DNA of 63,598 bases, filler included, from Reclinomonas americana ATCC 50394 (Eukaryota), in assembly GCA_048213135.1 (NCBI GenBank). It is 7 parts of 3 records of this genome, joined end to end, with 100 filler letters (N's around TTAATTAATTAA, not from the genome) between each part and the next. Parts side by side here need not be neighbours in the genome. Positions count along the whole stretch, not along the records: positions 11,886 to 24,676 come from PS015701.1; positions 24,777 to 36,038 come from PS015701.1; 5 more parts are not named here. One strand, written 5' to 3'. The position numbers and the translations under genes were made by a program. Of this stretch, positions 11,937 through 35,822 are shown in pieces (position 1 is the first letter of the stretch; every line of letters starts with the position of its first letter). The notes beneath the pieces are model-generated. The model did no database searches and had not been told where the DNA came from. It worked only from the letters and a program-made list of their open reading frames with translations.

Positions 11937-12487
11937 CAAGAGAGCTTGGCAGATGGCGTTCGAAGGCGATATGACCGCGTTGCGCAAGCTAATAGTGCGT
12001 AAGGGCGCGCACATTCTGCTCAAGAAAGAGGAGATGCATGAGGGGGGCTCTGCATTTTATGCTGCCTCTCAGCAAGGCCATCTCTCTGTGTTGGAGTTCT
12101 TGTGGGAGGAGAGTGGTGTCGGTCCAGAACTCGCACTGGTGCCTAACGACTATGGCTTGACGCCACTGATGGTTGCTGCCATCAAAGGTCATCTGCAAGT
12201 GGTCGAGTGGTTGCTGGCCGATGAGCGACGATGTCCGCCGGAGATGGTGCGGGCGGTCGCCGATGATTGTGACGACCGTCCGCAATCCACTGCGCTGCAT
12301 TTTGCTGCCGATTGCGGTCATGAAGCTGTTGTTTGCCTGCTTGCCACCCGCTTTCCCGACCTCATTCCCATGGTCGACGATGAGGGCAAGACCGCGGCTG
12401 ATAGTGCTCGCGCCAGTGACAAGGAACGCGTGGCCGAGTCGCTCGATCGCCTTGCTGCACTGGTAGCGCCACCTCCTCGTCAACAAG
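11937..12487 (+). CDS. Isolated ankyrin-repeat exon of the ANK-CC-kinase family (probably the missing exon 2 of copy C)
   Basis: [68 protein letters not shown] acceptor and GT donor present; flanked by gaps. Confidence 0.9.
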
Positions 12488-13446
12488 GTATGNNNNNNNN
12501 NNNNNNNNNNNNNNNNNNNNNNNNNNNNNNNNNNNNNNNNNNNNNNNNNNNNNNNNNNNNNNNNNNNNNNNNNNNNNNNNNNNNNNNNNNNNNNNNNNNN
12601 NNNNNNNNNNNNNNNNNNNNNNNNNNNNNNNNNNNNNNNNNNNNNNNNNNNNNNNNNNNNNNNNNNNNNNNNNNNNNNNNNNNNNNNNNNNNNNNNNNNN
12701 NNNNNNNNNNNNNNNNNNNNNNNNNNNNNNNNNNNNNNNNNNNNNNNNNNNNNNNNNNNNNNNNNNNNNNNNNNNNNNNNNNNNNNNNNNNNNNNNAATG
12801 CACGCGAAGGGACATATAACTCTCACCGCTGCTGACGACTACCACTTCCGGCAGCTCGGTTCTGTACGGCAGCCATTCCTCTTCCTCTTCCCGCGCACGT
12901 GTCGACAAAGTGCAGTGATGGATAGGAGGGAAACACTTGTGTCCTATCACATTTTGATTTTCCGACCAGACGTCGACTTCAGCACTTGTCACTGCTCCGC
13001 GTGAAGCTGGGTTGCGTGACAACTCGAGCCAACGATGCACCCTTGTCACCAAGCCGAGCAGTTGGCCATGAAGCTGATGAGCGTCCAACTGATAACGCTG
13101 TAATCACTTTGATCATGAGCACAACTGAAGGACGTGCTGCCGCGGTTGCAAGGCGCCACGTATGCGCAACAATCGATCTTCACCATCGACACGCAGCCGT
13201 TTGCTTTACCGCCGATGAGCAAAAAGCGCTGATCTACGCCTTTCGAGCAACTGAGGTCTGAACGACAGCAGCTGCCGTGCCGTGCGACAAGCAGTAGTAT
13301 TCTCACTTCAGCATTCAGTTTCCCTCGAGTGATATTGAAGACGACCTGCATGACTGCATCATTGTGCAAACCATTAACACCATAAACAAGCGACAAAACC
13401 CTCTCCTCATTCCGCCTCTGTCTCTCCTCCTCAGTTCCTCTCCAAT

Positions 13447-16400
13447 TCACAGCTCCATGGTGAATCCACCCAGCCTTTCTCTTAGATCGCGCATCACTAT
13501 CCTTGCCTCCGCCGCAGTTGGTCTGTCATAGAACAGCGACATACATCTGCACAGAAAGCAAGCGAAGTGAGTGGTGAGTCAACTCTTCTCTCTCTCTTCT
13601 CCGTCGGACGCAACTGCACCCCCAACCGCAGCATCCCGCTCGCCACATCCGCCGGCCACTCACCCGCACTGAGGTCTGCCTCTTCTGCACCGTCCACCGA
13701 CTCGAGTGACCGTTCCCACCGCGCAGCCTGTCCCACCAGAGTGCGCGCCTCGCGACCCGTCAGCAGCTGCAACAAGATGACACCGAATGCGTGCAGATCC
13801 ATGGCTGCACGAATCTCGCCCGAGCGGAAGAAGAGTGGATCGGTGTAGTACGAGGAACCGGCGTGTTTGGCGGTGTGGTGGTGGGTCTGTGTGCGGGGAG
13901 AGAGGGGGATGAGAAGAGAATGGCGAAGAGGGATGCATTCTCTGTTCGTGAACTCATGCTCTCGACGTGCTCTCAAGACACAATCTCTACCCATGCGAGA
14001 GTGAACAATGATATTCTGTCTATTCTCTTTGCGACGAGGAAAAACGATGTGCAACTCATCCTCTCAACGTGGAGAGGCGAGTACACGTTTACCTTCCTCT
14101 CACCCGTTGCATAAATCACAGGTCCACGATCACGGAGACACGGAGAACGAGAGAGTATTCTCGTGCACCAGAGTAGCGAAGGAAATAAGTGTGGACACAA
14201 AATGAGCAAGGCGATCACGCTGAGGAATGGAGAAAGAGTGCACATGTACGACAAACATGAACGCTCCATCGATCGCGCTACAAGCACCTGCTAAGTTTCG
14301 ATGACAGTCATGGAAGAATCCACTCGACAAAGAGAGTGAGAAGAGGAAAGAAGACGAGCTCTGGGTCTCCAACAAGCAACTGTGCAAGGGGATCGACAGA
14401 GCGAGCACACCAACGTAGAAGAAGAAGAAAATCATCTCACTCTTCGACACTCACCTCACCCTCATCGAAAATGCGCGCAATGCCAAAGTCACCGAGTCGC
14501 GGCTCACATCGATTGTCAAGCAGAATGTTGGATGGTTTGAGATCGCGATGCACGACGCCATTCTGAAAGGAGAGAAAGTGAGGGTGATGGTGGAAGGCAG
14601 GTGAACATTCGGAAGGAGAGGGTAATGGTCCCCGAGAATGCATGACGACGAGAAAGGAACGACGGGCCGAGAAAGTATCGACAAATGGCAGATTGTGGGA
14701 GAGGTGGAAAAGAAGACAGCGGTGCATGTACATAGCAAATGATGGTATCCACAAGTGAACTGTCGAAAGTGAGAAGCACGACTAGAGAAAGACAAGAAAC
14801 AGAACCCAACGACAGACAACTCAAGGAAGACGAGTGCCCGCCCACTCTCCGCTGACGATAACCAAAGACACAACCAACTGAGCAGAGAAGAATCACACGA
14901 TGCTCTCGCATCAACCAAAGACACAAACAAAGATTGCTCTCGCCAAGCAGAGCAGCAGAGGGAGTCTGCTGCCTCACTCACCTGATGCAGGAAACACATG
15001 CCCTCAACAATTCCAAGTCCGATTTGCACACGCTCCACCACCGTCAGTGGCTGCATCCCGTCCTTCCGCTTCATGAGTCGCACCTCCAAATCTTGTCCAC
15101 TGTGTGCGAAGCGAGTGAGGCGAGAAGAAGAAGGGAATGCAGAGAGAAAAGGAAAGAAGCAAAAGGAGGAGACAATGCGCTTGGTTGAAGAATGACGATC
15201 TCTGGAAGGTGCTCATTGTTGTATATGGATCAGTGAAGATTCAGATTATTACAAGGAGTGAGAGAGAGAAAGAGACTCAATGAGGGGAGGTGGAGGAAAC
15301 AGCGGAGAGAGCAAGTAAACGGGGATGAACAGAAGAGAATCAACAAACCAACCGCCTCGTCACACTTCCCTCCACCAACTCACCGCATTGCTCGATACAC
15401 CAAACATCGCCCTCGCACACCGCCACCCTCCACCAGCGTGGAATAACCCAAAAGCGGAACAAGTCGGCGATGATGTAGTCGTCCAATCGTGTTCAACTGG
15501 CATGAGGAGAAGTGAGCAACAGCTTAATCCCATCCCCTCCTGCTGCAACAGACCTCGGCATCGTACGACTCCATCGCCGATGGCGCAGCACCATCCAGTC
15601 GCTTGACAGCCACCTCTTCCTCGTTCAGCCAACACAGATACACGTCACCATGACCGCCTTCGCCGGCCTTCAAGTCGTCGGAGAAGGATTCGGTGGCCCG
15701 CACAATGTCAGGCCAGGGGTATTCGCGCAGGCGATTGGGATCCGCGGCTGCAGATGGGGAAAGGAGAGAGAGAGGTTCAGAGCGATAGTACGCAGAGAAG
15801 AGGCGCATCGCTCTCTCGCACCTTGGAGAGAAGCCAGCTCGCGGCGCAAGCGACCGACCTCATGGGTGAGATCGACCCGCTCACTGGCAAACAGTTGCGC
15901 CTGCTGTTCCAGTTCACGCTGCAGCTGCGCGACACGCTGCTCCAATACGGCATTGGTTTGTCGAAGTTCCTCGTGCTGCCGCTCGAGTTGCTGCTGCTGC
16001 TGCTCTCGCTCACGGCGGTATGCGTCGTATTCATGCCGAAGATGAGAAATGATGGCGTCCTTGTCGGCGAGCTGTCGGGCCACCGCGGAGGAGTCGTCCA
16101 CAGCCTGCAGGTAACAAGGAGGTCGGAAAGAGTAGAGAGAAAGAGAGCGACAAGAAACCACCAGAGACGGTACGCGAATGGACTGATATGGGAAGGAATG
16201 CGCAGATTCTCACCTGCCGCTGTGGCGAAGCTGCTGCTGGCAAACGAGCAACTTTGATGATGGGGACGGAGTAGGAACACAAAGTCACGAAGTGCAGGTC
16301 AGCATGTGCAAGGGAGAGCCAACAGCACACGTCAGAGAAAGACCTGGAGGCGAAGATCGCGGCTGCAGTTGTTGTTGTTGTTGTTGACGAGGTGGTGCTG

Positions 16401-17059
16401 GTTGCGCAGCGAGGCGGTCGAGCAACTCGACCACGTGTTCGTGGCCTGTAATGCGTGCCCATTGAGCCGCCGTCCTGCCCTTCTTGTCGACTATGGGAAT
16501 GAGGTCGGAAAAGCGTGTGGCAAGGAGTCGCACAATGGCTTTGTGGCCCCAGGCGGCAGCCCAATGCAGTGCAGTGGACTGTGGATTCGGATGACGATCA
16601 TTGGTACCCGCCCGCACCATCTCCGGCGGACATCGTCGCTCATCGGCCAGCAACCACTCGACCACTTGCAGATGCTCTTCATCGGCAGCAACCATCAGCG
16701 GTGTCTGGCCAGTATCGGTGACCACCAGTGCAAGTTCCGGACCGACGCCACTCTCCTCCCACAAATACTCCAACACAGAGAGATGGCCTCCGTGAGCGGC
16801 ACGGTAAAATGCCGAGCAGCCCTTGTGCATCTCCTCTCTCTTCAGCAGAGTGTGTGCACCCTCGCGTACCACCAACTCGCGCAGTGCCTTCACATTGCCA
16901 TTCCACGCCATCTCCCAAGCTTTCTTCCTGCAAAACACAACAAGCAGAGAGAGTGAGTTTGCACAGAGATCGATCGGACAATATCACACACATTCACACA
17001 CGCACACACCTCTCAACACCACCACTCCCCCCCACAGCTCCCCTGCGCGCCGCGCTCAT
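13447..17059 (-). CDS. Ankyrin-repeat / coiled-coil / IRAK-Pelle-like protein kinase, copy A (10 exons, ~600 aa)
   Basis: MSAARRG..|KKAWEM..ANK exon (~16927-16344)|[13 protein letters not shown]|coiled-coil exon|..[113 protein letters not shown]..|[15 protein letters not shown]. All junctions GT-AG and in phase. Confidence 0.9.
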
Positions 17060-17559
17060 CCTCCCCAACAACGACAGGAACGAAGTCGTGACAGAAGTGT
17101 CCTGCAAGTTTCGTTCACTTTGTCGTTTTCGCTTTCTCCATTTCCCTCCATCACTCGCGACTCCACTAACGCACACAGCCATCGAACTTCACGTGTGTGA
17201 CAGAGTAAACACACGCGCAAACAGAACTCAACAAGTCGACGTTCATCACGACGTCGCAATTCCGTAAGTTCAAGCTTTAAGTACCCTCCGCCGACCGACG
17301 TATGAGGTTCCTCATCGCACACCTTCATTAACGCGCTCAACATTTCCCTGCTCTCATCGAACGACGACGTTGCCTCGACGGCTGTGCATGCACTGAACTC
17401 TCGCTCGGAGTCGCCAAGCGTGGCGGGCTGCACGGTGACTGGCCGCAGTCAACATCGACAGTCCTCCAGTCACCTGCCAACGGCACAGGCGACAGATGTG
17501 GCCACAAAAACAGGAGGGCACCTGGGTTGCAATGCACCTTCCATTCCCTTGTTGTCTCT

Positions 17560-20500
17560 TCACAGCTCCATGGTGAAGCAACCCAGTCGCTCTCGCAGAT
17601 CACGCATCACCGTCCTTGCCTCCGCCGCAGTTGGTCTGTCAAAGTACAGCGACATGCATCTGCACAGAGAGCAAGCGAAGTGAGTGGTGATTCAGCTTTC
17701 TCTCTCTCCTTCTACTCCTCCTCGAGCTCGCACGCAACTGCACTCCCAACCGCAACATCCCGCTCGCCACATCCGCCGGCCACTCGCCCGCAGCAAGATC
17801 CGCCTCCTCCGCACCGTCCGCCGACTCGAGTGACCGTTCCCACCGCGAAGCCTGTCCCACCACCGCACGTGCGTCGCGACCGGTCAACAACTGCAGCAAG
17901 ATGACGCCGAATGCGTGCAGATCCATGGCTGCACGGATCTCGCCTGCGCGTACGAACAGCGGGTCGATGTAGTACGAGGAGCCGGCGTGCTTGGCGGTGT
18001 GGTGGTGGGTCTGTGCGCGGGGGTATGAGAGGAGAACGACGAAGAAAGATGCATTCTCTATTCGTGAACTCATGCTCTCGCCGTGCTCTCAAGACACAAT
18101 CTTCACATATGAGAGTGCACAACGACAATCATTCCATTCTCTCTGCGACGAGAAATCGCTGTGCAACTCAACTTCATACCGCGGAGACAGTCGAGCGCAC
18201 GATCCTCTTTCTTTCACTCATGCACGAGTCGAGGGCGCGTGACCAATGAGACACGGAGAACGAGAGAGCATTCTCGTGCACCACAGTCGCGAAGGAAATG
18301 AGTGTGGACACAGAATGAGCAAGGCAATCACTCTCAGGAAAGGAGAAAGGGTGCATATGTACAACAAACATGAACGCTCCATCGATCGCGCTGCAAGCAC
18401 CTGCTAAGCTTCGATGACAGCCATGAAAGAATCCACTCGACACCGAGAATGAGAAGTGGAAAGAAGACGAGCTCTGGGTCTCCAACAAGCAACCCGATTC
18501 GAGATAGATAAAATGAGTGAAACGCACACCAACAACAAAGAAGTGGAGAAGTATCTTCCTGCTATTCTCCATCTGCTGACACGCACTCACCTCCCCCTCA
18601 TCGAATATGCGAGCAATACCAAAGTCACCGAGGCGTGGCTCACATCGGTTGTCAAGCAGAATGTTGGATGGTTTGAGATCGCGATGCACGACGCCGTTCT
18701 GATAGGAGAGAAAGTGAGGGTGATGGTGGAAGAGAAGAAGAACATTTGGAGAGAGAGGGCGATGGTCGCCGAGAATGCATGACGACGAGAAAGGAACGAC
18801 GGGCCGAGAAAGTATCGACAAATGGCAGATTGTGGGAGAGGTAGAGGAGAAGAAAAGAAAGATCACCAACACGTGCGTGCATGTACATAGCAAATGATGG
18901 CATCTACAAGTGAACTGTCGAGAGTGAGAAGAACGACTAGAGAAAAGACAGGAAACACAATCCAACGGCAGACAACTCAAGGAAGACGAGTGCCCGCCCA
19001 CTCTCCGCTGACAACAACCAAAGATACAGCCTAATGAACAAGAAAGAGCCTCACGATGCTCTCACGAAAAAAGGCACAAACAAGGATTACTCTCGCCAAC
19101 CAAGCCAGCCGAGGAGCTGTACATGGAGTCTGCCGCCTCACTCACCTGGTGCAAGAAACACATGCCCTCAACAATGCCGAGACCGATTTGCACACGCTCC
19201 ACCACCGTCAGTGGCTGCATCCCGTCCTTCCGCTTCATGAGTCGCACCTCCAGATCCTGTCCGCTGTGTGCGAAGCAAGGGAGGTGAGAGGAAGAAGGGA
19301 ATGCAGAGAGAATAGGAAAGAAGCAAAAGGAGGAGACAATGCGCTTGGTTGAATAAGAATGACGATCTCTGGAAGGTGCTCATTGTTGTGTGTGGAGCAG
19401 TGACGATTCAGATTATTATTTCTAGGAGAGAGAGGGAGAACGAGAAACAATGACGGGAGGTGGAGAGCAAACAGGGGGAGAGACGGATATGATGCAAGTA
19501 AACGGGAGTGCACAGAAGAGAATCAACAAACCAACCGCCTCGTCACACTTCCCCCACCGACTCACCGCATGGCTCGATACACCAAACATCGCCCTCGAAC
19601 ACCACCACCCTCCACCAGTGTGGAGTAACCCAGCAGTGGAACAAGTCGACGATGATGCAGCCGTCCAATCGTGTTCAACTGGCATGAGGAGAAGTGAGCA
19701 ACAGCTTAATCCCATCCCCTCCTGCTTCAACAGACCTCGGTATCGTACGACTCCATTGCCGATGGCGCAGCACCATCCAGTCGCTTGACAGCCACATCTT
19801 CCTCGCTCAGCCAACAAAGATACACCTCACCATGACCGCCCTCGCCAGCCTTAAGGTCGCTGGAGAAGGATTCGGTGGCGCGTAGAATGTCAGGCCAGGC
19901 GTACTCGCGCAGGCGATTGGGATCTGCGGCTGCGTGAGAGAAGGAGAGAGAGAGAGGTTCAGAGTGACGGTACGCAGAGAAGTGGTGCATCGCTCTCAGT
20001 CATACCTTGGAGGGTGGCTAGCTCGCGGCGCAAACGACTGTTTTCATGCGTGAGATCGACCCGCTCACTGGCAAACAGCTGCGACTGCTGTTCCAGTTCA
20101 CGCTGCAGCTGCGCGACACGCTGCTCCAATACGGCATTGGTTTGTCGAAGTTCCTCGTGCTGCCGCTCGAGTTGCTGCTGCTGCTGCTCTCGCTCATGGC
20201 GGTATGCGTCGTATTCATGCCGAAGATGAGACATGATGGCGTCCTTGTCGGCGAGCTGTCGGGCCACCGCGGAGGAGTCGTCCACAGCCTGCAGGTAACA
20301 AGGAGGTCGGAAAGAGTAGAGAGAAAGAGAGCGACAAGAAACCAACAGAGACGGTACGCGAATGGACTGATATTGTAAGGAATGCGCAGATTCTCACCTG
20401 CCGCTGTGGCGAAGCTGCTGCTGGCACACGAGCAAATTCGATGATGGGGACGGAGTAGGAACACAAAGTCACGAAGTGCAGGTCAGCATGTGCAACGGAG

Positions 20501-21228
20501 AGACAACAGCACAAGGCAGAGAAAGACCTGGAGGCGGGGGTCGCGGTTGCTGTTGTTGCTGTTGGGGTGGTGGCGCTGGTTGCGCAGCGAGGCGGTCGAG
20601 TAACTCGGCCACTTGCTGGTGGCCTTTGCCGCGTGCCCACTGAGCCGCCGTCTTGCCCGCCTTGTCGACCACGGGAACGAGGTCGGGAAAGCGCGTGGCG
20701 AGGAGTCGCACAATGGCTTCGTGTCCATTCAAGGCAGCCCAATGCAGAGCAGTGGACTGTGAAGTGATGCCATGATCATTGGTGACGGCCCGCACCATCC
20801 CCGACGGGCACCGTCGCTCATCGGCAAGCAACCACTCCACCACTTGCAGATGCCCATTGTAGGCAGCGATCATCAGCGGTGTCTCGCCATAATCGGTGAC
20901 CACCAGTGCGAGTTCCGGACCGACACCACTCTCCTCCCACAAATACTCCAACAAGGAGAGATGGCCTTTCACAGCGGCAGCATAAAATGCCGAGGAGCCA
21001 AGCTCATTCATCTCCTCTCTCTTCAGCAGAGTGCGTGCATCCTCACGCGCCACCAACTCGCGCAGTGCCTTCACATCGCCATTCCACGCCATCTCCCAAG
21101 CTTTCTTCCTAGCAAAGAGAGTGAGTTTGCTTCAGAGATCGATCGGACAACATCACACACATTCACACACGCACACACCTCCGAGCGCCACCACTCCCCC
21201 CCACAGCTCCCCTGCGCGCCGCGCTCAT
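17560..21228 (-). CDS. ANK-CC-IRAK/Pelle-like kinase, copy B
   Basis: Same exon structure and motifs as copy A; ANK exon ~21107-20528. Confidence 0.9.
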
Positions 21229-21718
21229 CCTCCCCAACAACGACAGGAACGAAGTCGTGACAGAAGTGTCCTGCAAGTTTCTTCCAACTTCGTCGTTTTC
21301 CCCTTTCCTTCCCTCGCTCACTCGCGGTTCGACTAACGCACACAGCCATCGAACTTCACGTGTGCGACAGAGTAAATACCCGCACAAACAGAACTGAACA
21401 AAGTCGACGTTCATTACGACGTCGCCATTCCGTAAGTTCAAACTTAAGTACCCTTCGCCGACCGACATATGAGGTTCCTTATCGCACACCTTCATTATCG
21501 TGCTCAGCATTCTCCTGCTCTCATTTCGAGCGACGACGTTGCCTCGATGGCTGGTCACTGAAATCTTGCTCGGAGTTACTCAGCAGGCTGCACGGTGACT
21601 GGCCGCAGTCAACATCGACAGTCCTCCAGTCACCTGCCAACGGCACAGGCGGCAGATGTGGCCACGAAAGCAGGAGGGCACCTGGATTGCAATGCACCTT
21701 CCACTCTCTTCCGTCTCT

Positions 21719-24676
21719 TCACAGCTCCATGGTGAAGCCACCGAGCCTCTCTCGCAGATCACGCATCACCATCCTCGCCTCCGCCGCAGTTGGTCTGTCA
21801 AAGTACAGCGACATGCACCTGTAATAGCCATTGTAAGTGGTGATCCAACTCTTCTCTCCCTCTTCTCCTCCTCGCACGCAACTGCACTCCTAACCGCAGC
21901 ATCCCACTCGCTACATCCGCTGGCCACTCACCCGCACTGAGGTCCGCCTCCTCTGCACCGTCCACCGACTCGAGTGACCGCTCCCACCGCGCAGCCTGTC
22001 CCACCACCGCACGTGCGTCGCGACCGGTCAGCAGCTGCAGCAAGATGACGCCGAATGCGTGCAGATCCATGGAGGTGCGAATGTCACCTGCGCGTACGAA
22101 AAGCGGGTCGATGTAGTACGAGGAGCCGGCGTGCTTGCAAGTGTGGTGGTGGGTCTGTGCGCGGGGGTATGAGAGGAGAACGACGAAGAGAGATGCATTC
22201 TCTGTTCGTGAACTCGCTCTCAAGTCACGATCGCTACACATGCGAGAGTGAATAATGACATTCTGTCTCTTCTCTCCGCGACGAGAATTGTTGTGCAACT
22301 CATCCTCTCAACGGGGAGACAGACGAGTACACGTTTACCTTTCTCTCACCTATTGCACAAATCACAGGTCCACGATCAAGGAGACTTGGAGTACGAGAGT
22401 AGTTCTCATGCACCAGAGTTGCGAAAAAAGTGAGCGGACACAGAATGAGCAAGGCGATCACTCTCAGGAATGGAGAAAGAGTGCACATGTACAACAAGCA
22501 CGAATGCCCCACTCATCGCGCTGCAAGCACCTGCTAAGTCTCGATGACAGAAACGAAAGAACCCACTCGACAGAGTGAGAAGTGGAAAGTGAGAATAGGT
22601 GCTCTGGGTCTCCAGCACGCAACTGCGCGATATCGATAAAACGTGCGCAGTGCGCCCCAAGAAAGGAGAGGAGAAGCATCTTCCCGTGCTATCATCCATC
22701 TTCCTGCACAGACACTCACCTCCCCTTCGTCAAAAATACGCGCAATGCCAAAGTCACCGAGGCGTGGCTCACATCGATTGTCAAGCAGAATGTTGGATGG
22801 TTTGAGATCGCGATGCACAACGCCGTTCTGAGAGGAGAGAGAGAGAGAGAAAGTGAGTGTGATGGTGGAAGAGAAGAAGAAGGCATTTGGAAGGAGAGGG
22901 CGATGGTCTCCGAGGATGCATGACGACGAGAAAGGAACGACGGGCCGAGAAAGTATCGACAAATGGCAGATTGTGGGTGAGATGGAAGAGAAGACAGGTA
23001 AGATCACCAACACGAGCGGTGCAAACACATAGCAAACGATGGTATCGACAAATGAACTGTCGAGAGTGAGAAGCATGCCTAGAGAAAAGACAAGAAACAG
23101 AATCCAACGACAGACAACTCAAGGAAGACGAGTGCTCGGCCAGCCTCGGCTGACAAAAACCAAAGACAACAGCGTTATCAACAAAGAAGAGTCTCTCGAT
23201 GCTCTCATCAACCAAAGACACATACAAAGATTACTCTCGCCAACAGGGAAACTGTCGCTTCACTCACCTGATGCAAGAAGCACATGCCCTCTACAATTCC
23301 GAGTCCGATTTGCACACGCTCCACCACCGTCAGCGGCTGCATCCCGTCCTTCCGCTTCATGAGTCGCACCTCCAGATCCTGTCCACTGCGTGCGAAAGCA
23401 AGGGAGGTGAGGAAGAAGGGGATGCAGAGAGAAATGGAAAGAAGCAAAAGGAGGAGACAATGCGCTTGGTTGAAGAAGAATGATGATCTCTGGAAGGTGC
23501 TCATTGTGTATGGATCAGTGAAGATTCAGATTATTATTCCTAGGAGAGAGAAAAAGAAAGAGAAACAATGAAGGGAGATGGAGAGCAAACAGGGGGAGAG
23601 ACATATATTATGCAAGTAAACGGGACTGCACAGATGAGAATCAATAAACCAACCGCCTCATCACACTTCCGCCACCAACTCACCGCATGGCTCGATACAC
23701 CAAACATCGCCCTCGAACACCACCACCCTCCACCAGTGTGGAGTATCCCAGCAGCGGAACAAGTCGGCGATGATGTAGTCGTCCGATCGTGTTCAACTGG
23801 GGAGAGCGAGAATGAGCGAGTGACAATCCCAATACCATCTCCTTCTGGCATCACGTACTTCCGCATCGTACGACTCCATTGCCGATGGCGCAGCACCATC
23901 CAGTCGCTTGACAGCCACCTCTTCCTCGTTCAGCCAGCACAGAAACACGTCACCTTGGCCGCCTTCGCCGGCCTTCAGGTCGTCGGAGAAGGATTCAGTG
24001 GCGCGTAGAATGTCGGGCCACGCGTATTCGCGCAGGCGATTAGGATCGGCGGCTGCAGATGGGGAAAGGAGAAAGAAAGGTTTAGAGTGACGGTTCGAAG
24101 AGCAGAAATGCGTCTCTCTCACGCGCACCTTGGAGGGTGGCAAGCTCGCGGCGCAAACGACCGACCTCATGGGTGAAATCGACTCGCTCACTGGCAAACA
24201 GTTGCGTCTGTTGTTCCAGTTCACGCTGCAGCTGCGAGACACGCTGCTCCAACATGACATTAGCCTGTCGAAGTACCTCATGCTGCCGCTCATACTCCCG
24301 CAGCTGCTGCTCTCGCTCGTGTCGATATGCGTCGTATTCACGCTGCAGATGAGCGACACGCTGCTCGTGCTCTCGTCGCTGCTGCTCAGCTTGTCGCTCA
24401 TACTCCCGCTGCTGCTGTTGTTCTCGCTCCTGTCGACATGCATCGTATTCGCGCTGCAGACTGGCAATGGTGGAGTCCTTGTCGGCGAGCTGACGCGCCA
24501 TCGCAGCAATGCCGTCAACGGCCTGCAAGGAACGAACGCGAGAGGGTGAGAGAAAAGTGAGTCGAAGGCTGTCAGGTGGAGGGCGACTCACCTGCTGCTG
24601 CTGTTTGGCTGAGGAACACATCAAAAGGAAACGTCATCAAGCGATGGAACAAAAAACGCAATCGCCAACGAAAGGG
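21719..24676 (-). CDS. ANK-CC-IRAK/Pelle-like kinase, copy C (5' exons missing at gap; long coiled coil)
   Basis: All kinase exons and an extended coiled-coil exon are present; sequence stops at the gap inside the intron following the ANK exon. Confidence 0.85.
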
Positions 24677-25435
24677 NNNNNNNNNNNNNNNNNNNNNNNN
24701 NNNNNNNNNNNNNNNNNNNNTTAATTAATTAANNNNNNNNNNNNNNNNNNNNNNNNNNNNNNNNNNNNNNNNNNNNAGTGCACGCGAAGGGACACATCAC
24801 TCTCACCGCTGCTGACGACTACCACTTCCGGCAGCTCGGTTCTGTACGGCAGCCATTCCTCTTCCTCTTTCCGCGCACGCGCGATGCAACAAAAAAAGGG
24901 AAACACCTCGTGTCCTGCTGATTCTCCGACGTCGACTTTAGTTCTTGTCACTGCTCCGCGTGAAGCTGGGTTGCGTGACAACTCGAGCCAACGGTGCATC
25001 CTTGTCACCAAGCCGCGCAGCTGACCATGGAGCTCAAGAATCCTGAACTAATAAGCTGTAAGCGCATTATGCACCTCTCACGTTGTGCTGCTGCGGTTGA
25101 AAGGCGCCACACATGCGCGACTGTCGGTCTTCACTGTCGAAACGCAGCCGTTTGCTTTTACCACCGATGAGCAAGGGCGCTGGTCTGCGCCATTCGAGCA
25201 ACTGAGGTCTGAACGACAGAAGCTGTCGTCAGCACCTCAACTGGTGCCTGGAAACCAGCAACTCACAATGCCGTGCAACAAGCAGTAGTATTCTCACTTC
25301 AGCATTCAGTTTCCCTCGAGTGACATTGAAGACGACCTGCATGACTGCATCATTGCAAACCATTAACACCATAAACAAGCGACAAAACCCTCTCCTCATT
25401 CCGCCTCTGTCTCTCCTCCTCAGTTCCTCTCCAAT

Positions 25436-28400
25436 TCACAGCTCCATGGTGAATCCACCCAGCCTCTCGCGTAGATCGCGCATCACTATCCTTGCCTCCG
25501 CCGCAGTTGGTCTGTCATAGAACAGCGACATGCATCTGCACAGAGAACGAGCGAAGTAAGCGGCGAGTCTTCTCTCCATCCCTCTTCTCCTCGCACGCAA
25601 CTGCACCCCCAACCGCAACATCCCGCTCGCTACATCCGCCGGCCACTCGCCCGCACTGAGGTCCGCTTCCTCGGCACCGTCCGCCGATTCCAGTGACCGT
25701 TCCCACCGCGCAGCCTGTCCCACCACCGCACGTGCGTCGCGACCGGTCAGCAGCTGGAGCAAGATGACACCGAATGCGTGCAGATCCATGGCTGCACGGA
25801 TCTCGCCTGCGCGGACGAACAGCGGGTCGATGTAGTACGAGGAGCCGGCGTGCTTGGCGGTGTGGTGGTGGGTCTGTGCGCGGGGGTATGAGAAGAGAAT
25901 GGCGAAGAGAGATGCATTCTCTGTTCGTGAACTCGCTCTCAAGTCACCGTCGCCACACATGCGAGAGTGAACAATGCCATTCTGTCTCTTTTATCTGCGA
26001 CGAGAAAAACGATGTGCAACTCAACCTCTAAACGCCGAGACAGGTGGGCACATGATTCTTTGTCTCTCACCCATCGCACAAATCACAGGTCTACGATCAA
26101 GGAGACGTGGAGAACGAGAGAAGTTCTCGGGCACCAGGGTTGTGAGACACAGAACAGGAACGGAGAAGTGAGCACTGGCAACAAACACGAATGCTGCCTC
26201 AATCTCGCTGCTGATCACTGCTGTGTCCATCTCTTCCATGACAGAAACGAAAGAATCCACTCGACAACGAGAGTGAGAGGTAGAAAGAAGACGTGCTCTG
26301 GGCCTTCCAACAGTAACTCAGCTCGGCGATACAACGTGCGCAGTGCGCCCCAAGAAAGAAGAGGAGAATCATTTTCCTGTGCTATCATCCATCTGCCGAG
26401 ACACTCACCTCCCCCTCATCGAAAATGCGCGCAATACCAAAGTCACCGAGGCGCGGTTCACACCGATTGTCGAGCAGAATGTTGGATGGTTTGAGATCGC
26501 GATGTACAACGCCGTTCTGAGAGGACAGAGTGAGTGTGATGGTCGAAGGGAAGAACATCTGGAGAGAGAGGGCGATGGCATCCGAGAATGCATGACACAC
26601 CAAAGAACTCGTCATCCGAGGGATGTTTGTGGGTGAAGTGGAAGAGAAGAAAGGAAAGATCGTCAGCTTGAACAATGAGCACCACATAACAAATGAGGGC
26701 ATCTACAAGTAAACTGTCGAGAGTGAGAAGCACGACGAGAGGAAAGACAAGAAACACACTACAACGACTGGCAACACAAAGACGCGAGTACTTACTCTCT
26801 GCTGACAACAACCAAAGACACAGCCTAATGAACAAAGAAGAGCCTGAAGAGCTCTCACAAACAAAAAACACAGACAATGATTGCGCTCGCCAACAGGGAA
26901 ACTGTTACCTCACTCACCTGATGCAAGAAACACATGCCCTCGACAATGCCGAGTCCGATTTGCACACGCTCCACCACCGTCAGTGGCTGCATGCCGGCCG
27001 CTCGCTTCATGAGTCGCACCTCCAGATCCTGTCCACTGTGTGCGAAGCAAGGGAGGTGAGGAAGAAGGGGATGCAGAGAGAAATGGAAAGAAGCAAAGAA
27101 GGAGACAATGCGCTTCGTTGAAGAAGAGTGACGATCTCTGGAAGGTGCTCATTGTGTATGGACCAGTGAAGATTCTATTAATTCTAGGAGAGAGAGAGAG
27201 AGAGAAAGAGACACAATGAGGGGAGGTGGAGAGCGAACAGCGGAGAGACAGATATGATGCAAGTAAACGGGAGTGAACAGAAGAGAATCAACAAACCAAC
27301 CACCTCGTCACACTTCCCCCACAAACTCACCGCATTGCTCGATACACTAGACATCGCCCTCGCACACCACCGCCCTCCACCAGCGTGGAGTATCCCAGCA
27401 GTGGAACAAGTCGACGATGATGCAGTCGTCCAATCGTGTTCAACTGGCATGAGGAGAAGTGAGCAACTGGCATGAGGGGAAGTGAGCAACAGCTTGATCC
27501 CATCTCCTTCTGCCTCAACGGACCTCGACATCGTACGACTCCATGGCCGATGGCGCAGCACCATCCAGTCGCTTGACAGCCACCTCTTCCTCGTTCAGCC
27601 AGCACATATACACCTCACCATGACCTCCTTCGCCAGCCTTCAGGTCGCTGGAGAAGGATTCGGTGGCGCGTAGAATGTCAGGCCAGGGGTATTCGCGCAG
27701 GCGATTGGGATCAGCGGCTGCAGATGGGGAAAGGAGAAAGAGAGGTTCAGAGTGACGGTACGCAGAGAAGAGGTGCATCTCACTCAGTCATACCTTGGAG
27801 TGTGGCCAGCTCGCGGCGCAGGCGACCGACCTCATGGGTGAGATCGACCCGCTCACTGGCGAAGACATGCGTCTGTTGTTCTAGCTGTGCGACACGCTGC
27901 TCCAATACGGCATTGGTTTGTCGAAGTTCCTCGTGCTGCCGCTCGAGTTGCTGCTGCTGCTGCTCTCGCTCACGGCGGTACGCGTCGTGTTCGCGCTGCA
28001 TTTGGGCGATGAATGCATCCTTCTCGGCGAGCTGACGGGCCACCGCGGCGGCGTCCAGTGCCTGCCCAGAAGCAGGGAGGTCGGCAAGAGTAGAGAGAAA
28101 AAGAGCGAGAGGAAACCACCAGAGATGGTACGCGAATGGACTGATACAGGAAGGAATGCGCAGATTCTTACCTGCCGCTGTGGCGAAGCTGCTGCTGGCA
28201 CATGAGCAACTTTGATGATGGGGACGGAGTAGGAACACAAAGTCGCGAAGTGCAGGTCAGCATTCGCAAAGGAGAGACAACAGCACACGTCAGAGAAAGA
28301 CCGGGAGGTGGAGGACATCGCGGCTGCTGTTGTTGTTGTTGACGTGGTGGCGCTGTTTGTGCAGCAAGGTGGTCGAGCAACTCGGCCACTTCCTGCTTGC

Positions 28401-29008
28401 CACACTCGCGTGCCCATTCAGCCGCCGTCTTGCCCTCATAGTCGACCATGGGAATGAGGTCGGGATAGCGAGTGGCAAGGAGTCGCACAATGGCTTTGTG
28501 GCCCCAGGCGGCAGCAAAATGCAGTGCGGTGGACTGTGGATTGTTGGAACGATCATTGGTGACCGCCCGCACCATCTCCGGTGGACATCGTCGGTCATCG
28601 GCAAGCAACCACTCCACCACTTGCAGATGTCCATTGCAGGCAGCCACCATCAGCGGTGTCTCACCACAGTCGTTGACCACTAGTGCGAGTTCCGGACCGA
28701 CACCACTCTCCTCCCACAAGAACTCCAACACAGAGATATGGCCTTGTTGAGCGGCACAGTAAAATGCCGTGCAGCCATCGTCTATCTCCTCTCTCTTCAG
28801 CAGAGTGCGCGCACCCTCACGTGCCACCAACTTGCGCAGTGCCTTCACATTGCCGTCAAATGCCATATCACATGCTTTCGGCCTGCAAAACACAACAAGC
28901 AGAGAGAGTGAGTGCGCACAGAGGTCGATCAGACACACACATTCACACACACACACACCTCCGAGCGCCACCACTGCCCCCCACAGCTCCACTCCGCGCC
29001 GCATTCAT
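25436..29008 (-). CDS. ANK-CC-IRAK/Pelle-like kinase, copy D
   Basis: MNAARSG..|[10 protein letters not shown]..; same exon structure; [12 protein letters not shown] and DFG intact; ends GGFTMEL*. Confidence 0.9.
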
Positions 29009-29409
29009 TCTCCCCTTGCAGCGAGATAGGAGATCGACAGGGAGTGTGTCCTGCAAGTTTCATTCCAAACTTTATGGTCTTCGCTTTTTTCCATTTCCGT
29101 TTCCCTCGCTCGCTCGCGGTTCGACTAACGCACACAGCCATAGAACTTCACGCGCGTGACAGGAAAAAACACACGGGCAAACAGAACTCAACAAAGTCGA
29201 CGTTCATCACGACGTCGCCCTGTCATTCCCTAATTCAATGAGTACCGTAAGTTCAAGCCTAAGTACAATACCCCTCGCCTCCCGACATATGAGGTTCCTT
29301 ATCGCACACCTTAAGTTATCGTGCTCGGCATTCCCCTGTTCTCATGTCGAACGCCGTTGCCTCGATGGCTGGGCACTGAAACCTCGCTCGGAGTCGCCAA
29401 GCGGGCTGC

Positions 29410-29542
29410 ACGCAGCGGTGACTGACCGCAGCCAATATCGACAGTCCTCCAGTCACCTGCCAACGGTGCAGGCGACAGCTGTGGCCACAAGCGTCGGAGG
29501 GCACCTGGATTGCAATGCACCTTCCACTCCCTTGTTGTCTCT
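29410..29542 (-). pseudogene. Decayed C3HC4 (IAP/MDM2-type) RING coding remnant just after the kinase stop (homologues at ~17435-17559 and ~21590-21718)
   Basis: With two frameshifts reads [41 protein letters not shown]. Confidence 0.55.
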
Positions 29543-32500
29543 TCACAGCTCCATGGTGAAGCCACCCAGCCTTTCTCGCAGATCACGCATCACCATCCTC
29601 GCCTCCGCTGCAGTTGGTCTATCAAAGTACAGCGACATGCATCTGCACAGAGAGCAAGCGAAGTGAGTGGTGAGTCAACTCTTCTCTCTCTCTTCTCCGT
29701 CGGACGCAACTGCACCCCCAACCGCAGCATCCCACTCGCCACATCCGCCGGCCACTCGCCCGCAGCAAGATCCGCCTCCTCGGCACCGTCCGCCGACTCG
29801 AGTGACCGCTCCCACCGCGCAGCCTGTCCCACCAGAGAGCGCGCCTCGCGACCGGTCAACAACTGCAGCAAGATGACGCCAAAAGCGTGCAGATCCATGG
29901 CTGCACGAATCTCGCCCGAGCGGAAGAAGAGTGGATCGGTGTAGTACGTGGAACCGGCGTGTTTGGCGGTGTGGTGGTGGGTCTGTGCGCGGGGAGAGAG
30001 GGGGATGAGAAGAGAATGATGAAGAGAGATATTCTCTGCTCGTGAGCTCATGGTCTCGCCGTGCTCTCAAGACAAAAATCTCCACCCATGCGAGAGTGCA
30101 GAACGACAATCTTTCCATTCTCTCTGCGACGAGAATAGTTGTACAACCCATCCTCTCAACGTGGAGATGCACGAGTACACGTTTACCTTTCTCTCACCCA
30201 CTGCACAAATCACAGGTCTACGATCAAGGAGACACGGAGTATGAGAGTAGTTCTCATGCACCAGAGTTGCGAAGGAAATGAATGTGGACACAGATGAGCA
30301 AGGCAATCACTCTCAGGAAAGGAAAAAGGGTGCACATGTACAACAAACATGAACGCTCCATTGATCACGCTGCAAGCACCTGCTAGGTTTCGATGACAGT
30401 CATGAAAGAATCCACTCGATAACGAGAGTGAAAAGTGGAAAGAAGACGAGCTCATCTCAGGGATCGGAATAATGAGTGAAACGCACACCAACAACAGCAG
30501 AAGAGAATCATCTTCCTGTGCAGTCATCCATCTGCCGAGGCGCACACTCACCTCCCCCTCATCGAAGATGCGCGCGATGCCAAAGTCTCCAAGACGTGGC
30601 TCGCATCGATTGTCAAGCAGAATGTTGGATGGTTTGAGATCGCGATGCACGACGCCGTTCTGAGAGGAGAGAGGAGAGAGGGTGACGAAGGAAGGAAACA
30701 TTTGGAAGGAGAGGGCGATGGTCTCCGAGAATTCATGATGACGGGAAGGAACATGCCATCCGAGGGAAGGTTGTGGGAGAGGTGGAAAAGAAGACAAGGA
30801 AGATCACCAACGCACGTGCGGTGCAAACACATAGCAAATGATGACATCTACAAGTGAACTGTCGAGAGTGAGAAGCACGACGAGAGAGGAGGCAAGAGAC
30901 ACAATCCAACGACTGGCAACTCAAGGAAGACGAGTACCTGCCCACTCTCCGCTGACAACAACCAAAGACACAGCCTGATCAACAAAGAAGAGTCGCTCGA
31001 TGTTTCCAAAGACACATACAATGATTGCTCTCGCCTATACGAGAGGTCGCGCAGGGAGTCTGCCGCCTCACTCACCTGGTGCAAGAAACACATGCCCTCG
31101 ACAATGCCGAGACCGATTTGCACACGCTCCACCACCGTCAGTGGTTGCATCCCGTCCTTCCGCTTCATGAGTCGCACCTCCAAATCTTGTCCACTGCGTG
31201 CGAAGCACGGGAGGTGAGAGGAAGAAGGGAACGCAGAGAGAAATGGAAAGAAGCAAAGGAGGAGACAATGCGCTTGGTTGAAGAATGACGATCTCTGGAA
31301 GGTGCTCATTGTTGTGCATGGATCAGTGAAGATTCAGGTTATTATTTCAAGGAGTGAGAGAGAGAAAGAGACACAATGAGGGGAGGTGGAGAGCGAACAG
31401 CGGAGAGACAGATATGATGCTAGAAAGCGGGAGCGAACCAACCGCCTCGTCACACTTCCCCCACCAACTCACCGCATGGCTCGATACACCAGACATCGCC
31501 CTCTCACACCACCACCCTCCACCAGCGTGGAGTATCCCAGCAGCGGAACAAGTCGGCGATGATGTAGTCGTCCAATCGTGTTCAACTGGCATGAGGAGAA
31601 GTGAGCAACAGCTTAATCCCATTCCCTCCTGCTTCAACAGACCTCGGCATCGTACGACTCCATCGCCGATGGCGCAGCACCATCCAGTCGCTTGACAGCC
31701 ACCTCTTCCTCGTTCAGCCAGCACATATACACCTCACCATGACCGCCCTCACCGGCTTTCAGGTCGTCGGAGAAGGATTCAGTGGCGCGTAGAATGTCGG
31801 GCCAGGGGTATTCGCGCAGGCGATTGGGATCTGCGGCTGCGTGACAGAAGGAGAAAGAAAGGTTTAGAGTGACGGTTCGAAGAGCAGAAATGCGTCTCTC
31901 TCACGCGCACCTTGGAGGGTGGCAAGCTCGCGGCGCAAACGACTGTTTTCATGCGTGAAATCGACTCGCTCACTGGCAAAGAGTTGCGCCTGCTGTTTCA
32001 ATTCACGCTGCAGCTGCGCAACACGCTGCTCTGCGATGGCGAGAGCCTGTCGAAGTACCTCATGCTGCCGCTCATGTTCCCGCAGCTGCTGCTCTCGCTC
32101 GTGTCGATATGCGTCGTATTCACGCTGCAGATGTGCGACACGCTGCTCGTGCTCTCGTCGCTGCTGCTCAGCTTGTCGCTCATACTCCCGCTGCTGCTGT
32201 TGTTCTCGCTCCTGTCGACATGCATCGTATTCGCGCTGCAGACTGGCAATGGTGGAGTCCTTGTCGGCGAGCTGACGCGCCATCGCAGCAATGTCGTCCA
32301 TGGCCTGCAAGAAACGCACGCAAGAGGGTGAGAGAAGAGTGAATCGAAGGCTGTCAGGTGGAGGGCGACTCACCCGCTGCTGCTGTGCGACTGAGGAACA
32401 ATCAAAAGGAAACGTCATCAAGCGATGGAACAAAAAACGCAGTCGCCAAAGAAAGGGCACACCTTGCTGATGAGATGGCGGCGCTGATTGTGCAGTGAGG

Positions 32501-33141
32501 CGGTCGAGCAACTGGGCCACTTGTTGGTGACCGTTGCGGCGTGCTCTCTGAGCCGCCGTCTTGCCCTCATAGTCGACCATGGGAATGAGGTCGGGAAAGC
32601 GAGCGGCGAGGAGTCGAACAATGGCTTCGTGGCCCCAGGGGGCTGCGAAATGCAGAGCAGTGGACTGTGAACTCAAGTGACGGTCATTGGTGACCGCCCG
32701 CACCATCTCTGGCGGACATCGTCGCTCATCGGCCAGCAGCCACTCGACCACTTGCAGATGTCCCTTGCAGGCAGCCGCCATCAGTGGCGTCATGCCATTG
32801 TCGGTGACCAACAGTGCGAGTTCCGGACCGACGCCACTCTCCTCCCACAAATACTCCAACACAGAGAGATGGCCTTCGTACGCGTGAGCGGCATAGAAAA
32901 ATGCCGAGCCGTTTTTACGCATCTCATCTCTCTTCAGGAGAGTGCGTGCGCCCTCACGTGCCACCAACTCGCGCAGTGCCTTCACATCGCCAAGCAAAGC
33001 CATCTCCCAAGCTTTCAGCCTGCAAAACGCAACAACAAGCAAAGAGAGTGACTTTGCACAGATCAATCAGACTGCAAACAACAGATCAAGGCACGCGCAC
33101 CTCTTTCCTCCACCGTTGCCTCTGTTCTGTGCAGCACTCAT
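29543..33141 (-). CDS. ANK-CC-IRAK/Pelle-like kinase, copy E (long coiled coil)
   Basis: MSAAQNRG..|[10 protein letters not shown]..; kinase exons intact; ends GGFTMEL*. Confidence 0.9.
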
Positions 33142-33529
33142 TCTTCACACACTCACAGGGCTCCACACACAAGGTTGATCACACGGCCCCGATCACAAGG
33201 GCAGAGTTGGCGGAGTGGCAACGAACGAGAAAGATGTCCTGCATGCGTTGTGGATCGTCGGAACATTCAGGGAATGAACGTCCTTTGCCAGCGTTGGGTG
33301 GTGCGGCAAGTACGACATGCAGAATGGGAGCACACGGGAGAGGGGGTATGACGTCGACGTCGACGATGCTGAAGTTTGTGCCGGTTCGGCGTCAGCTGAA
33401 AGTCGGCTCACCAGTGGCCACCAGAACTTGTGCTGACAAAGTTCTCATGCCTGAGCCCCATCAACAGTTTTGACTCAGACAGGAGGGATGTATCCATTGT
33501 CTGTTGTTGTTGTTGTTGACTTTACTTCA

Positions 33530-35331
33530 AAGCTTCTTGACGAGTCCACTCAGCTTCTCTCGGAGATCCCGCATTGCTGACAATGGAATAGCGGCGCGCA
33601 TCTACACAAAAGAATGAGAGGCATCCCTTTCCCATCTCTTCTCCTCACAGAGACGCAACTGCACACCCCCCTTCCAAAGTATCGGTTGTACTGATCGTTC
33701 CCGTCTGGCCTGCGCAGCACTTGCACCAGATTCACCTCGAGTGTAGTGCAGCGTGTTGGAGTTCGGCCAGTTCGCGGCGCAAGCGCTCGATTTCACAGTT
33801 TTGATCGGCAGACTTCTGGACAAGTGCCTGAGCTTGCTGCTCTACATCGCGTTGCAGCTGGGCGACTCGCTGCTTTGCGATGGCGTGCAACCGTTGAAGT
33901 TCTTCGTGCTCTCGTCGCTCATGTTTCCGCTGTTGCTGTTCTCGCCGTCGTCGGTATGGATCAATCAAGGCGTCATGCTCAGAGCTGACGCACCACGCGA
34001 CACCGTCCAATGGCTGCAGGGAAACAGGGAGGTGGGCAAGAGGGCGAGAGAGGGAGGGAGGGAGGATAGGAGGGAGGGAGGGAGAGAGAAAAGAGAGAGG
34101 AAGTGAGCGAAAGAGAGTGAAAGAGAAAGAAGATGAGAGTAAAAAGAGAGAAACGAGAGAAAAAGAAAGAGAAAGAGGAGAGAGAGAGAGAGAGAGAGAG
34201 TAAAGAAGAATCTGGAGATGCATGAGAGGAAGAGAGACAGAGGCAGATCTGAAAAGAGAATGCGCGCGCGAGAGAGAGAGAGTGAAGAACACGAGCGAAT
34301 GAGTGTGCAGTGAGTGTACGCAAGGGCATGCATGGGACAGAGACAGGCAGCCAAAGAGAGATAGTGAGTGAGATAAACGTTGAGAGAGAGAGACTGACTG
34401 ACAGACAGAGAGAGGAGGGGGGGGGGAGAAAGACAAAACAGAGAGAAAAAGAAAAGTAGTGCGAGAGAGAGAGAGAGAGTGACAAGTAGCGTGCTCACAG
34501 ATGATACACGAAGGAACTTGGTCGCAAAGCACACGCAGTGTCTCACCTGACGTTGTGGGGACGCTGCTGTGGGTTGGTTCGGGAAATCGCGACACGAAAT
34601 GCAAAGTCAGGAAACGAGAGACAACAGCTAATGAAGACAACGAGAGACAAATATACCTGGAGGTGGAGATCGCGGCTGCTGTTCTTGTCGATGTGCTGGT
34701 GCTGGCTGCGGAGCGAGGCGATCGAGCACCTCGGCCACTTGGTGGTGGTCGTTGTCGCGTGCCACCTCAGCCGCCGGCTTGCCTTCCTTGTCAACCATGG
34801 GTACGAGATCGGGGAAACGAGTGGCAAGGAGTTGCACAATGGCTTCGTGGCAACTCCAGGCAGCGAAATGCAGTGCAGTCCACTGTTCATAGTCGACTAC
34901 CTCTGACGCACATCGTTGCTCATCGGCCAGCAACCATTCCGTCACATGCAAATGTCCTTGCTCGGCAGCTACCATGAGTGATGTCATGCCATAGTCAGTG
35001 ACCAACTGTGCGAGTTGTGGCCCGACGCCACTCTCCTCCCACAGAAACTCCAACACAGAGAGGTGGCCTTTCCACGCGGCACAGTAGAATGCCGAGGCGC
35101 CCTCATCCATCTCCTCCTTGTTCAGCAGAATGTGCGTGCCCTCATGCGCCACCAACTCGCGCAGTGCCCTCACGTCGCCGTAATAAGCCATCGCACATGC
35201 TCTCAGCCTTTTACCATGAAGCAGCCAGTGTGCGTTCCATAAGACTGACATCGAAACAACGAATTGCACATACACACGCACCCCTCATCGCCACCACGTG
35301 CATCCTTGCCTCTCCTCCGTGCGGCACTCAT
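33530..35331 (-). pseudogene. Kinase-less copy F (ANK + degenerate coiled coil + kinase C-terminal remnants); pseudogene or decoy
   Basis: Open ANK exon ~35206-34657. The coiled-coil frame stops at 33732. Only AQARRERSV..GVQLR and MRDLREKLSGLVKKL* remnants follow; N-lobe, HRD and DFG exons are absent. Confidence 0.75.
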
Positions 35332-35624
35332 TCTTGAACACACAAACAGCTGACAGCGTTGTCCTGCAAGATTGTTCCGACGAAGTCACGTCACGCTTCA
35401 TTGCGAAGCAGTGGTGCGTCTTACGTAGCAGACGCACGAAGCCAACAGCAAGTGCACTTTACCGACTGCGACGTTTCCATCTCCTGCTTGAGATTGACCT
35501 GGCTCGTTCCGACACCTCGCGATCGGTCTCAGCAGCCGTAGCTGGTTAACGTTGCTCTGCAGTCAAGTGAAATTCACAGCCAAAGAGGCTGCGCTGGCCG
35601 CCGAACGCGACCTCGTGTTCATCT

Positions 35625-35745: not shown

Positions 35746-35822
35746 AGGATGGGATGCATGAAGGGTCCTCTTTGTCATGCAATGCATTTTTCCGACTTAC
35801 TTTTTTGTTTATCTTTTCTCAC

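Follow-up and report, generated by a model that had tools for sequence, protein, structure and literature searches.

The 63,598-nucleotide (nt) stretch of DNA considered here (the window) comes from the jakobid Reclinomonas americana ATCC 50394 (GenBank assembly GCA_048213135.1) and carries a cluster of genes that combine an ankyrin-repeat (ANK) exon with a coiled coil and a protein kinase (Table 1). Five minus-strand units, A to E, each span about 4.1 kb and contain a coiled-coil block and six kinase blocks. In A, B, D, and E, the ANK exon heads the full unit of ANK exon, microexon, coiled coil, and kinase. The ANK exon of gene C is unassembled, and its contig piece stops at 24676, about where that exon should begin. 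A tblastn search of the window with copy A recovers six intact ANK-exon copies, each about 580 nt long and open across the exon: A, B, D, E, F, and an orphan, copy O, which is bounded by the first contig spacer and a gap of N's at 12493-12796. The other copies are 59-76% identical to A, and no extra ANK or kinase copies were seen in the window beyond 11.9-35.3 kb. A first-pass annotation of the window had placed a set of hypervariable ankyrin exons, the orphan among them, at 16344 to 35206. Copy O lies outside this range: it is on the opposite strand and opens a separate contig piece.

The predicted protein begins with a short leader, followed by the five ANK repeats, a Gln-rich linker that includes a microexon, the coiled coil, and, at the C-terminus, an RLK/Pelle/IRAK-like Ser/Thr kinase. 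Judged from their sequences, the ANK exons mark a young family of paralogs whose products are probably cytoplasmic. A predicted exon 1, which starts with ATG and encodes MSAARR..., is conserved upstream of the ANK exons in A, B, D, E, and F and lies about 80 nt before the ANK exon in the alignment. The ANK exon itself is flanked by an AG acceptor before it and a GT donor past the Gln-rich tail. The predicted microexons between the ANK and coiled-coil exons are 17-41 nt long, rich in Ala, Gln, and Pro codons, and placed no more than 240 nt past the ANK exon. That of B has lost its upstream AG acceptor; A, B, and D share a further in-frame acceptor 18 nt downstream.

The kinase motifs of gene A are intact, including the glycine loop and DFG, and the kinase parts of all five units are intact and conserved, with K2 and K4 of copies B to E 100% conserved relative to copy A. 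The kinase is apparently active. Block K4 matches Pfam Pkinase at 2.9e-11, and Pfam scans of the short exons K1, K2, K3, and K5 singly gave no match. Searched against the PDB, the N-lobe exon K1 matches RLK/Pelle/IRAK kinases in 12 of 12 cases (LysM-RLK3, IRAK1, CERK1, BRI1, lectin RLK, and PBL2), and all six matches of the C-lobe exon K5 are plant RLK/RLCK proteins (PBL2, SYMRK, LysM-RLK, and RIPK-like proteins). These matches are weak (E 7e-6 to 0.03) because single exons were the queries, and they identify nearest neighbours rather than a phylogeny. P-loop NTPase families are absent from Pfam scans of the separate pieces, and ANK, coiled-coil, and kinase blocks take up the 4.1-kb unit, with no NACHT or NB-ARC domain among them. 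In gene F, the ANK exon is followed at 33732-34656 by a long CT-rich tract of low complexity and a stretch resembling a coiled coil, and tblastn finds no kinase blocks there. This gene may be truncated, or it may encode a short isoform made up of ANK domain and coiled coil.

The ankyrin character of the exon is evident from profiles and from a predicted fold. All four copies scanned match Pfam Ank_2 (E 3e-19 to 2e-23; 69.8-83.4 bits against a cut-off of 27.3) and fall in the ankyrin superfamily (Pfam CL0465). An AlphaFold2 (AF2) model of copy B, built from a seven-sequence alignment, has a mean predicted local distance difference test score (pLDDT) of 94.8, a predicted template modelling score (pTM) of 0.89, and five helix pairs, so that the modelled domain displays the stack of helix-turn-helix-hairpin repeats of the ankyrin fold. 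Foldseek returns at least 500 PDB matches to this model at E <= 0.001, the best being ANK proteins and designed ankyrin repeat proteins (DARPins). Five-repeat N3C DARPins rank highest, with template modelling (TM) scores of 0.78 by query and 0.86 by target. In the alignment, the repeat number is five in all six copies, and a long insertion precedes repeat 3. Repeats inside one protein are 11-44% identical in copies A and B.

Variation among the copies is concentrated in a few places on a near-constant scaffold. The string LWEESGVGP is unchanged in the six window copies and in P0113, a protein derived from an expressed sequence tag (EST) of the same species. A second scaffold string of 12 residues is identical in four of six copies and differs by one residue in A and two in F. 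The first-pass annotation had contrasted such nearly invariant stretches with seven sets of variable residues, and the six-copy protein alignment reproduces both, with each variable set exactly as quoted, including the loop deletion in F. In canonical ANK numbering, which sets G at position 4, TPLH at 6-9, and GH at 15-16, the strings WN, FD, and their counterparts are positions 13-14 of the N-terminal capping repeat. The strings following FY, AA, and AR are positions 10, 13, and 14 of repeats 1-4, and DYGE with its variants covers positions 2-5 in repeat 2. Ahead of repeat 3, the variable loop takes up position 33 and positions 1-3. DARPin libraries randomise exactly positions 2, 3, 5, 13, 14, and 33, and the same positions are hypervariable and contact ligands in natural ANK repeats (PMC1261162).

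Codon models were fitted to the ANK exon with a Goldman-Yang likelihood program using F3x4 frequencies and pruning on an IQ-TREE tree. Under M0, omega is 0.59 for the whole exon. Site models add a class of rapidly changing codons: M2a is preferred over M1a with twice the log-likelihood difference (2dlnL) at 56.95 (omega2 = 4.69, p2 = 0.151), M8 over M7 at 71.35, and M8 over M8a at 58.58. As a control for recombination, the likelihood ratio test (LRT) of M1a against M2a was repeated on variants of the data and tree, and it stays significant when each half of the exon is given its own tree (5' half, 20.18; 3' half, 34.28), on a star tree (67.57), for the 162 gap-free codons (49.72), and for A, B, D, and E alone (35.91). 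A permutation test of the pairwise homoplasy index (PHI) type found no recombination signal within the ANK exon (p = 0.29). In controls of the program, the LRT did not exceed 1.19 in 12 simulations of the fitted M1a, 304 kinase codons from five copies gave omega 0.088 and an LRT of 0, and the coiled coil gave an LRT of 5.17 (p = 0.075).

Most of the codons so identified lie where ankyrin domains bind their ligands. A naive empirical Bayes (NEB) posterior above 0.5 is reached by 25 codons. Among these, 18 fall in the 26 codons of the canonical positions 2, 3, 5, 13, 14, and 33, a set fixed a priori, and seven among the other 151 codons (Fisher p = 2.9e-13). At a posterior above 0.9, the counts are 16/26 and 4/151. 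Sites were placed by secondary structure and canonical numbering. Two of the seven outside sites fall at position 10, in helix 1 of repeats 1 and 4, which would lie on the same face, one helical turn ahead of positions 13-14. The others are position 1 of the repeat-3 hairpin, the first alignment codon, and three less strongly supported codons located in helix 2 or the turn. Treated as a fixed class, the canonical codons have an omega of 2.78, compared with 0.38 elsewhere in the exon, and the test rejects omega = 1 (2dlnL = 36.4, p = 1.6e-9). The 25 codons of the helix-2 back face (positions 18, 21, 22, 25, and 26) have an omega of 0.34 and the remaining codons 0.39. These values indicate that variability is not spread across the surface. 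Phe, Trp, and Tyr are commoner at selected sites (17/119, 14.3%) than elsewhere (53/920, 5.8%; p = 0.0015). A similar bias toward aromatic residues is seen at many hot spots of protein binding.

The observation itself is real, and the clustering of variation on the binding face is overwhelming. Apart from the seven outside sites, the copies show the DARPin-like pattern of a constant scaffold with variation at canonical positions, which agrees with the proposal of the first-pass annotation that the variable residues form the face randomised in DARPins. Sharing this scaffold, the copies are driven apart at the beta-hairpin tips and helix-1 ends of every repeat, at the canonical positions plus position 10, residues of the concave face with which ANK domains bind ligands. 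Positive diversifying selection, which the annotation had suggested, is the best-supported cause. Of the three outcomes that the annotation had named as contrary to it, dN/dS at or below 1 at these sites, evenly spread variability, and ANK divergence no greater than that of introns, none was observed.

Neutral yardsticks point the same way. In pairwise comparisons of A, B, D, and E by the Nei-Gojobori method, the dN of the 26 binding-face codons (0.48-0.73) exceeds ANK dS (0.24-0.31), kinase dS (0.25-0.39), and the divergence (K) of three kinase introns (0.10-0.34). Kinase dN is 0.013-0.033, and ANK scaffold dN is 0.07-0.105. Among A, B, and D, the raw divergence of the ANK exon (0.151-0.168) exceeds that of every flanking non-coding segment (intron 0, 0.043-0.111; intron 1 with the microexon, 0.054-0.069; intron 2, 0.028-0.138), which is the reverse of the usual relation between exon and intron. 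The introns adjacent to the ANK exons of A and B had been described as nearly identical, with a single intron at 16110-16340 in A. The near-identity stands (10 of 239 non-coding nt downstream of the exon differ, 7/130 plus 3/109), but the segment most likely comprises two introns and a microexon.

The combined reading, diversifying selection on the ANK face together with a role of that face in recognition, is given a probability of roughly 60%. Several observations weigh against it. Giving the 26 canonical codons a synonymous rate of their own, estimated at 1.64-fold, lowers omega to 1.72, which no longer differs significantly from 1 (2dlnL = 2.78, p = 0.096). An omega above 1 thus depends on the yardstick, namely the exon-wide synonymous rate, kinase dS, or introns. 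The added rate parameter is itself non-significant (2dlnL = 2.36), and synonymous sites are few in a set of 26 codons. For the same codons, the Nei-Gojobori method (NG86) gives a pN/pS of 0.93, an estimate that is biased and unreliable for codons with several differences. Between E and A, B, or D, the flanking introns are as divergent as the surface sites (K = 0.39-0.82), in alignments made unreliable by 11-47% gaps; the ANK exon of E is no farther from the others (dS 0.29-0.31). Moreover, the canonical positions are the least conserved across ANK proteins generally (PMC1261162). The codon program is self-written rather than PAML or HyPhy, the sample is six sequences from a draft of concatenated contig pieces, and splice sites and the gene model are predicted from the multiple alignment. 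Expression support comes from one EST-derived paralog, and chimeric assembly of near-identical paralogs has to be allowed for in a draft.

Some of these points would be expected under relaxed constraint, in which a structurally free face drifts neutrally while purifying selection or gene conversion holds the rest similar, or in which the local mutation rate is higher. This account is unlikely. Neutral sites cannot outpace the synonymous rate, and omega = 1 is rejected at the exon-wide rate and in all random-site tests, although the dual-rate fit and the NG86 ratio leave room for drift. The null of the dual-rate fit requires a 2.5-fold higher local rate, yet synonymous differences in the scaffold are barely raised near selected sites (0.265 within two codons of one, 0.218 farther away). 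The equally exposed back face has a low omega (0.34), which also speaks against drift. Hypermutation or micro-conversion hot spots may contribute, although the synonymous rise near selected sites is slight and the PHI test is non-significant. The mosaic structure of the units is clear and would fit drift, with flanks of A, B, and D differing by 3-14% against 15-17% in the exon, and with C and E sharing the long coiled coil. However, conversion tracts would not spare single codons unless selection kept the diversity. The high divergence of the E introns, equal to that of the surface sites, also fits drift, but it is drawn from the gapped alignments described above.

Two coiled-coil types are present, one of about 98 residues (A, B, and D) and one of 135 residues with an internal duplication-like insert (C and E). 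Coiled-coil dS is 0.124 between C and E and 0.118 between A and B, compared with 0.41-0.85 between types, a sign of segmental exchange among units. For the contrast between exon and flanks, the simplest reading is that parts of the units are kept alike through gene conversion or unequal exchange, and that ANK exons, once converted, are not retained. Under diversifying selection, the flanks would be homogenised in this way while the ANK exon stays diverse.

An error of assembly, in which reads from a repeated locus would have been collapsed or joined into chimeric copies, is very improbable. Misjoined reads cannot target structurally defined codons while six frames stay open, and the five kinase parts are intact and conserved. 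The setting nevertheless invites the suspicion. The window consists of contig pieces chained by artificial 100-nt spacers, the gene cluster is split over two of them (11886-24676 and 24777-36038), one piece stops exactly where the ANK exon of C should start, and the orphan exon sits between a spacer and an N gap. Because the window is chained in this way, gene order across spacers is no evidence of linkage, and the adjacency of C and D is not established. Independent evidence comes from P0113, a 154-residue R. americana protein (EukProt EP00694) that is 72% identical over 77% of the query. It keeps the scaffold and has new residues at the same variable positions, which makes it a seventh member, and its EST origin means that at least one member of the family is transcribed.

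P0113 is the sole close relative found in 5.8 billion clustered proteins. A wider ANK-domain search returned 111 generic ANK proteins whose identities do not exceed 42% across more than half the query length, none with a kinase Pfam domain, and a search for close relatives of the kinase C-lobe gave no match at E <= 1e-5. In a profile search of 1.84 billion representatives, giant multi-repeat ANK proteins dominate. P0113 is the only single-stretch full-length match among the 150 matches listed, which says little about other taxa. Among titles and abstract openings, nothing relevant was found that links Reclinomonas to ankyrin, its nuclear genome, or a recognition-receptor family, and at title level the literature on ANK positive selection, paralogs, and kinases describes no such family.

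The closest precedent is provided by the ANK domains of fungal NLRs: those of Podospora have their polymorphic and positively selected sites on the concave face (Dyrka et al. 2014, PMC4986451). Fungal NLR/STAND proteins share with the Reclinomonas family natural ANK domains read as a fast-diversifying recognition repertoire. The two differ in architecture and in the source of diversity. Fungal NLRs have NACHT or NB-ARC, whereas the Reclinomonas proteins are without a NOD domain and have a kinase as output. Fungal repeats are more than 85% identical and vary in number by shuffling (PMC4986451), whereas those of Reclinomonas are fixed at five, and their diversity lies between clustered paralogous genes instead of between repeats. 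Within-protein repeat shuffling of the fungal kind is ruled out here by the low identity of the repeats (11-44%).

With N3C DARPins, the Reclinomonas domain shares size, fold (TM 0.78-0.86), a constant scaffold, and variation at the canonical positions. DARPins are synthetic consensus proteins selected in vitro; the Reclinomonas domain is natural, intron-containing, non-consensus, and 27-35% identical to DARPin chains. It also differs in its pre-repeat-3 insertion, the extra selected position 10 (repeats 1 and 4), and the fusion to a coiled coil and kinase. By analogy, the domain may work like a DARPin library, yet it is natural and not a DARPin. The first-pass annotation had spoken of a natural binder library. 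Diversification of the canonical binding face is supported, and "library" is best taken as a metaphor for six or seven known members.

The kinase side resembles RLK/Pelle/IRAK proteins such as PBL2, CERK1, BRI1, SYMRK, and IRAK1 in kinase type, intact catalytic motifs, and the coupling of a variable recognition module to a kinase. Unlike these, the Reclinomonas proteins have no transmembrane segment, LRR or LysM ectodomain, or death domain, and carry an N-terminal intracellular ANK domain instead. Ankyrin repeats are joined to kinases of the tyrosine kinase-like (TKL) group in ILK, TNNI3K, and RIPK4/ANKK1 of animals and plants, with a different order in RIPK4 and ANKK1. To our knowledge, these are single-copy conserved adaptors for which no hypervariable binding face has been reported.

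If the diversified face serves recognition, each paralog would bind a different ligand through its concave ANK surface, and binding would be relayed to the kinase, probably by coiled-coil-mediated oligomerisation. The family would then form a germline-encoded set of sensors or adaptors of differing specificity. Possible targets are fast-changing non-self molecules, for example bacterial, viral, or prey proteins. Alternatively, diversification may be real but directed toward endogenous substrates or scaffolds after duplication, with no arms race or non-self recognition. This is less likely still than neutral drift of the face, since selection acts on all branches of a star-like tree with omega about 4.7 at 15% of sites, which resembles continuing turnover and not one burst. 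Clustered, fast-diverging copies with a broken or short member such as F would also be typical of environment-facing families. In favour of endogenous targets, the ANK domains of known ANK-kinase proteins act as adaptors, the kinase and scaffold are under strong purifying selection as in housekeeping signalling proteins, and the cluster is surrounded by genes of ordinary families (fragments of KH, PLD-like, PH, proline dehydrogenase, and RING type).

Both positive selection on the concave face, in fungal NLRs, and the hypervariability on which DARPin design rests are already known. What is new is the jakobid host and the architecture, in which an ANK domain fixed at five repeats is joined to a coiled coil and to a kinase of IRAK/RLK-like type, with the diversity lying between clustered paralogs rather than between repeats. 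In its strongest and rather doubtful form, the interpretation would be that jakobids (Discoba) possess a germline repertoire of DARPin-like ANK receptors wired to Pelle/IRAK-type kinases, an independently evolved system of intracellular non-self recognition. Were this true, the kinase class of plant and animal innate immunity would occur with a different recognition fold in a free-living bacterivorous protist, and the early history of Pelle/IRAK-type signalling would become testable in a deep-branching eukaryote. If foreign molecules are sensed, ANK would widen the list of variable-receptor folds (Ig, LRR, WD40, TPR, and ANK). The natural variants would then also offer a small, ready map of the ANK surface positions that tolerate and reward change.

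Table 1. Features of the ANK-kinase gene cluster and of the surrounding window (positions along the window)
Feature	Position	Strand	Remarks
ANK coding block, orphan copy O	11938..12459	+	preceded by acceptor; GT donor near ~12487
ANK exon, gene A	16344..16927	-	five ankyrin repeats, then Gln-rich tail
ANK exon, gene B	20528..21108	-	copy used for AF2 model
ANK exon, gene D	28302..28882	-	
ANK exon, gene E	32463..33019	-	
ANK exon, gene F	34657..35207	-	8-codon deletion in repeat-3 loop
tblastn match extent, orphan	11917-12486	+	
tblastn match extents, A, B, D	16288-16983 (A), 20472-21146 (B), 28246-28935 (D)	-	
tblastn match extents, E, F	32464-33063 (E), 34643-35209 (F)	-	
Predicted exon 1, gene A	17010..17059	-	ATG, MSAARR..., GT donor at end
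Predicted in-frame microexon, gene A	16214..16254	-	41 nt, or 23 nt with alternative acceptor; CAG/GTGAG donor
Predicted microexons, other genes	~20398-20438 (B), ~28172-28212 (D), ~32374-32390 (E), ~34547-34566 (F)		
Coiled-coil block, gene A	15811..16104	-	
Coiled-coil blocks, long type	24118-24522 (C), 31900-32304 (E)		
Kinase blocks K1-K6, gene A	13450..15751	-	introns between blocks
Kinase blocks, gene B	17563..19933	-	
Coiled coil and kinase blocks, gene C	21722..24522	-	
Kinase blocks, gene D	25439..27721	-	
Kinase blocks, gene E	29546..31840	-	
Artificial spacers	11786-11885, 24677-24776, 36039-36138, 48649-48748, 60844-60943, 62384-62483		44 N + TTAATTAATTAA + 44 N
Open reading frames with ordinary eukaryotic family fragments	2629-3198, 37556-38278, 38945-40276, 55689-56336, 60078-60737, 60957-61721		

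The six spacers that split the window are identical, and their TTAATTAATTAA carries stops in all six frames. Spacers of this kind are used to chain contigs into pseudomolecules. The base composition of the window (about 55% G+C), its GT-AG introns, and its microsatellite tracts are eukaryotic. Runs of N lie at 9727-10639 and 46122-46726, and the bins 10001-12000 and 46001-48000 show a G+C of 0.31-0.34, a dip that probably reflects the way N runs are counted and not true AT-rich DNA. Around the cluster, open reading frames carry family fragments of tubulin-like (weak), KH, PLD-like, PH, proline dehydrogenase, and RING type.

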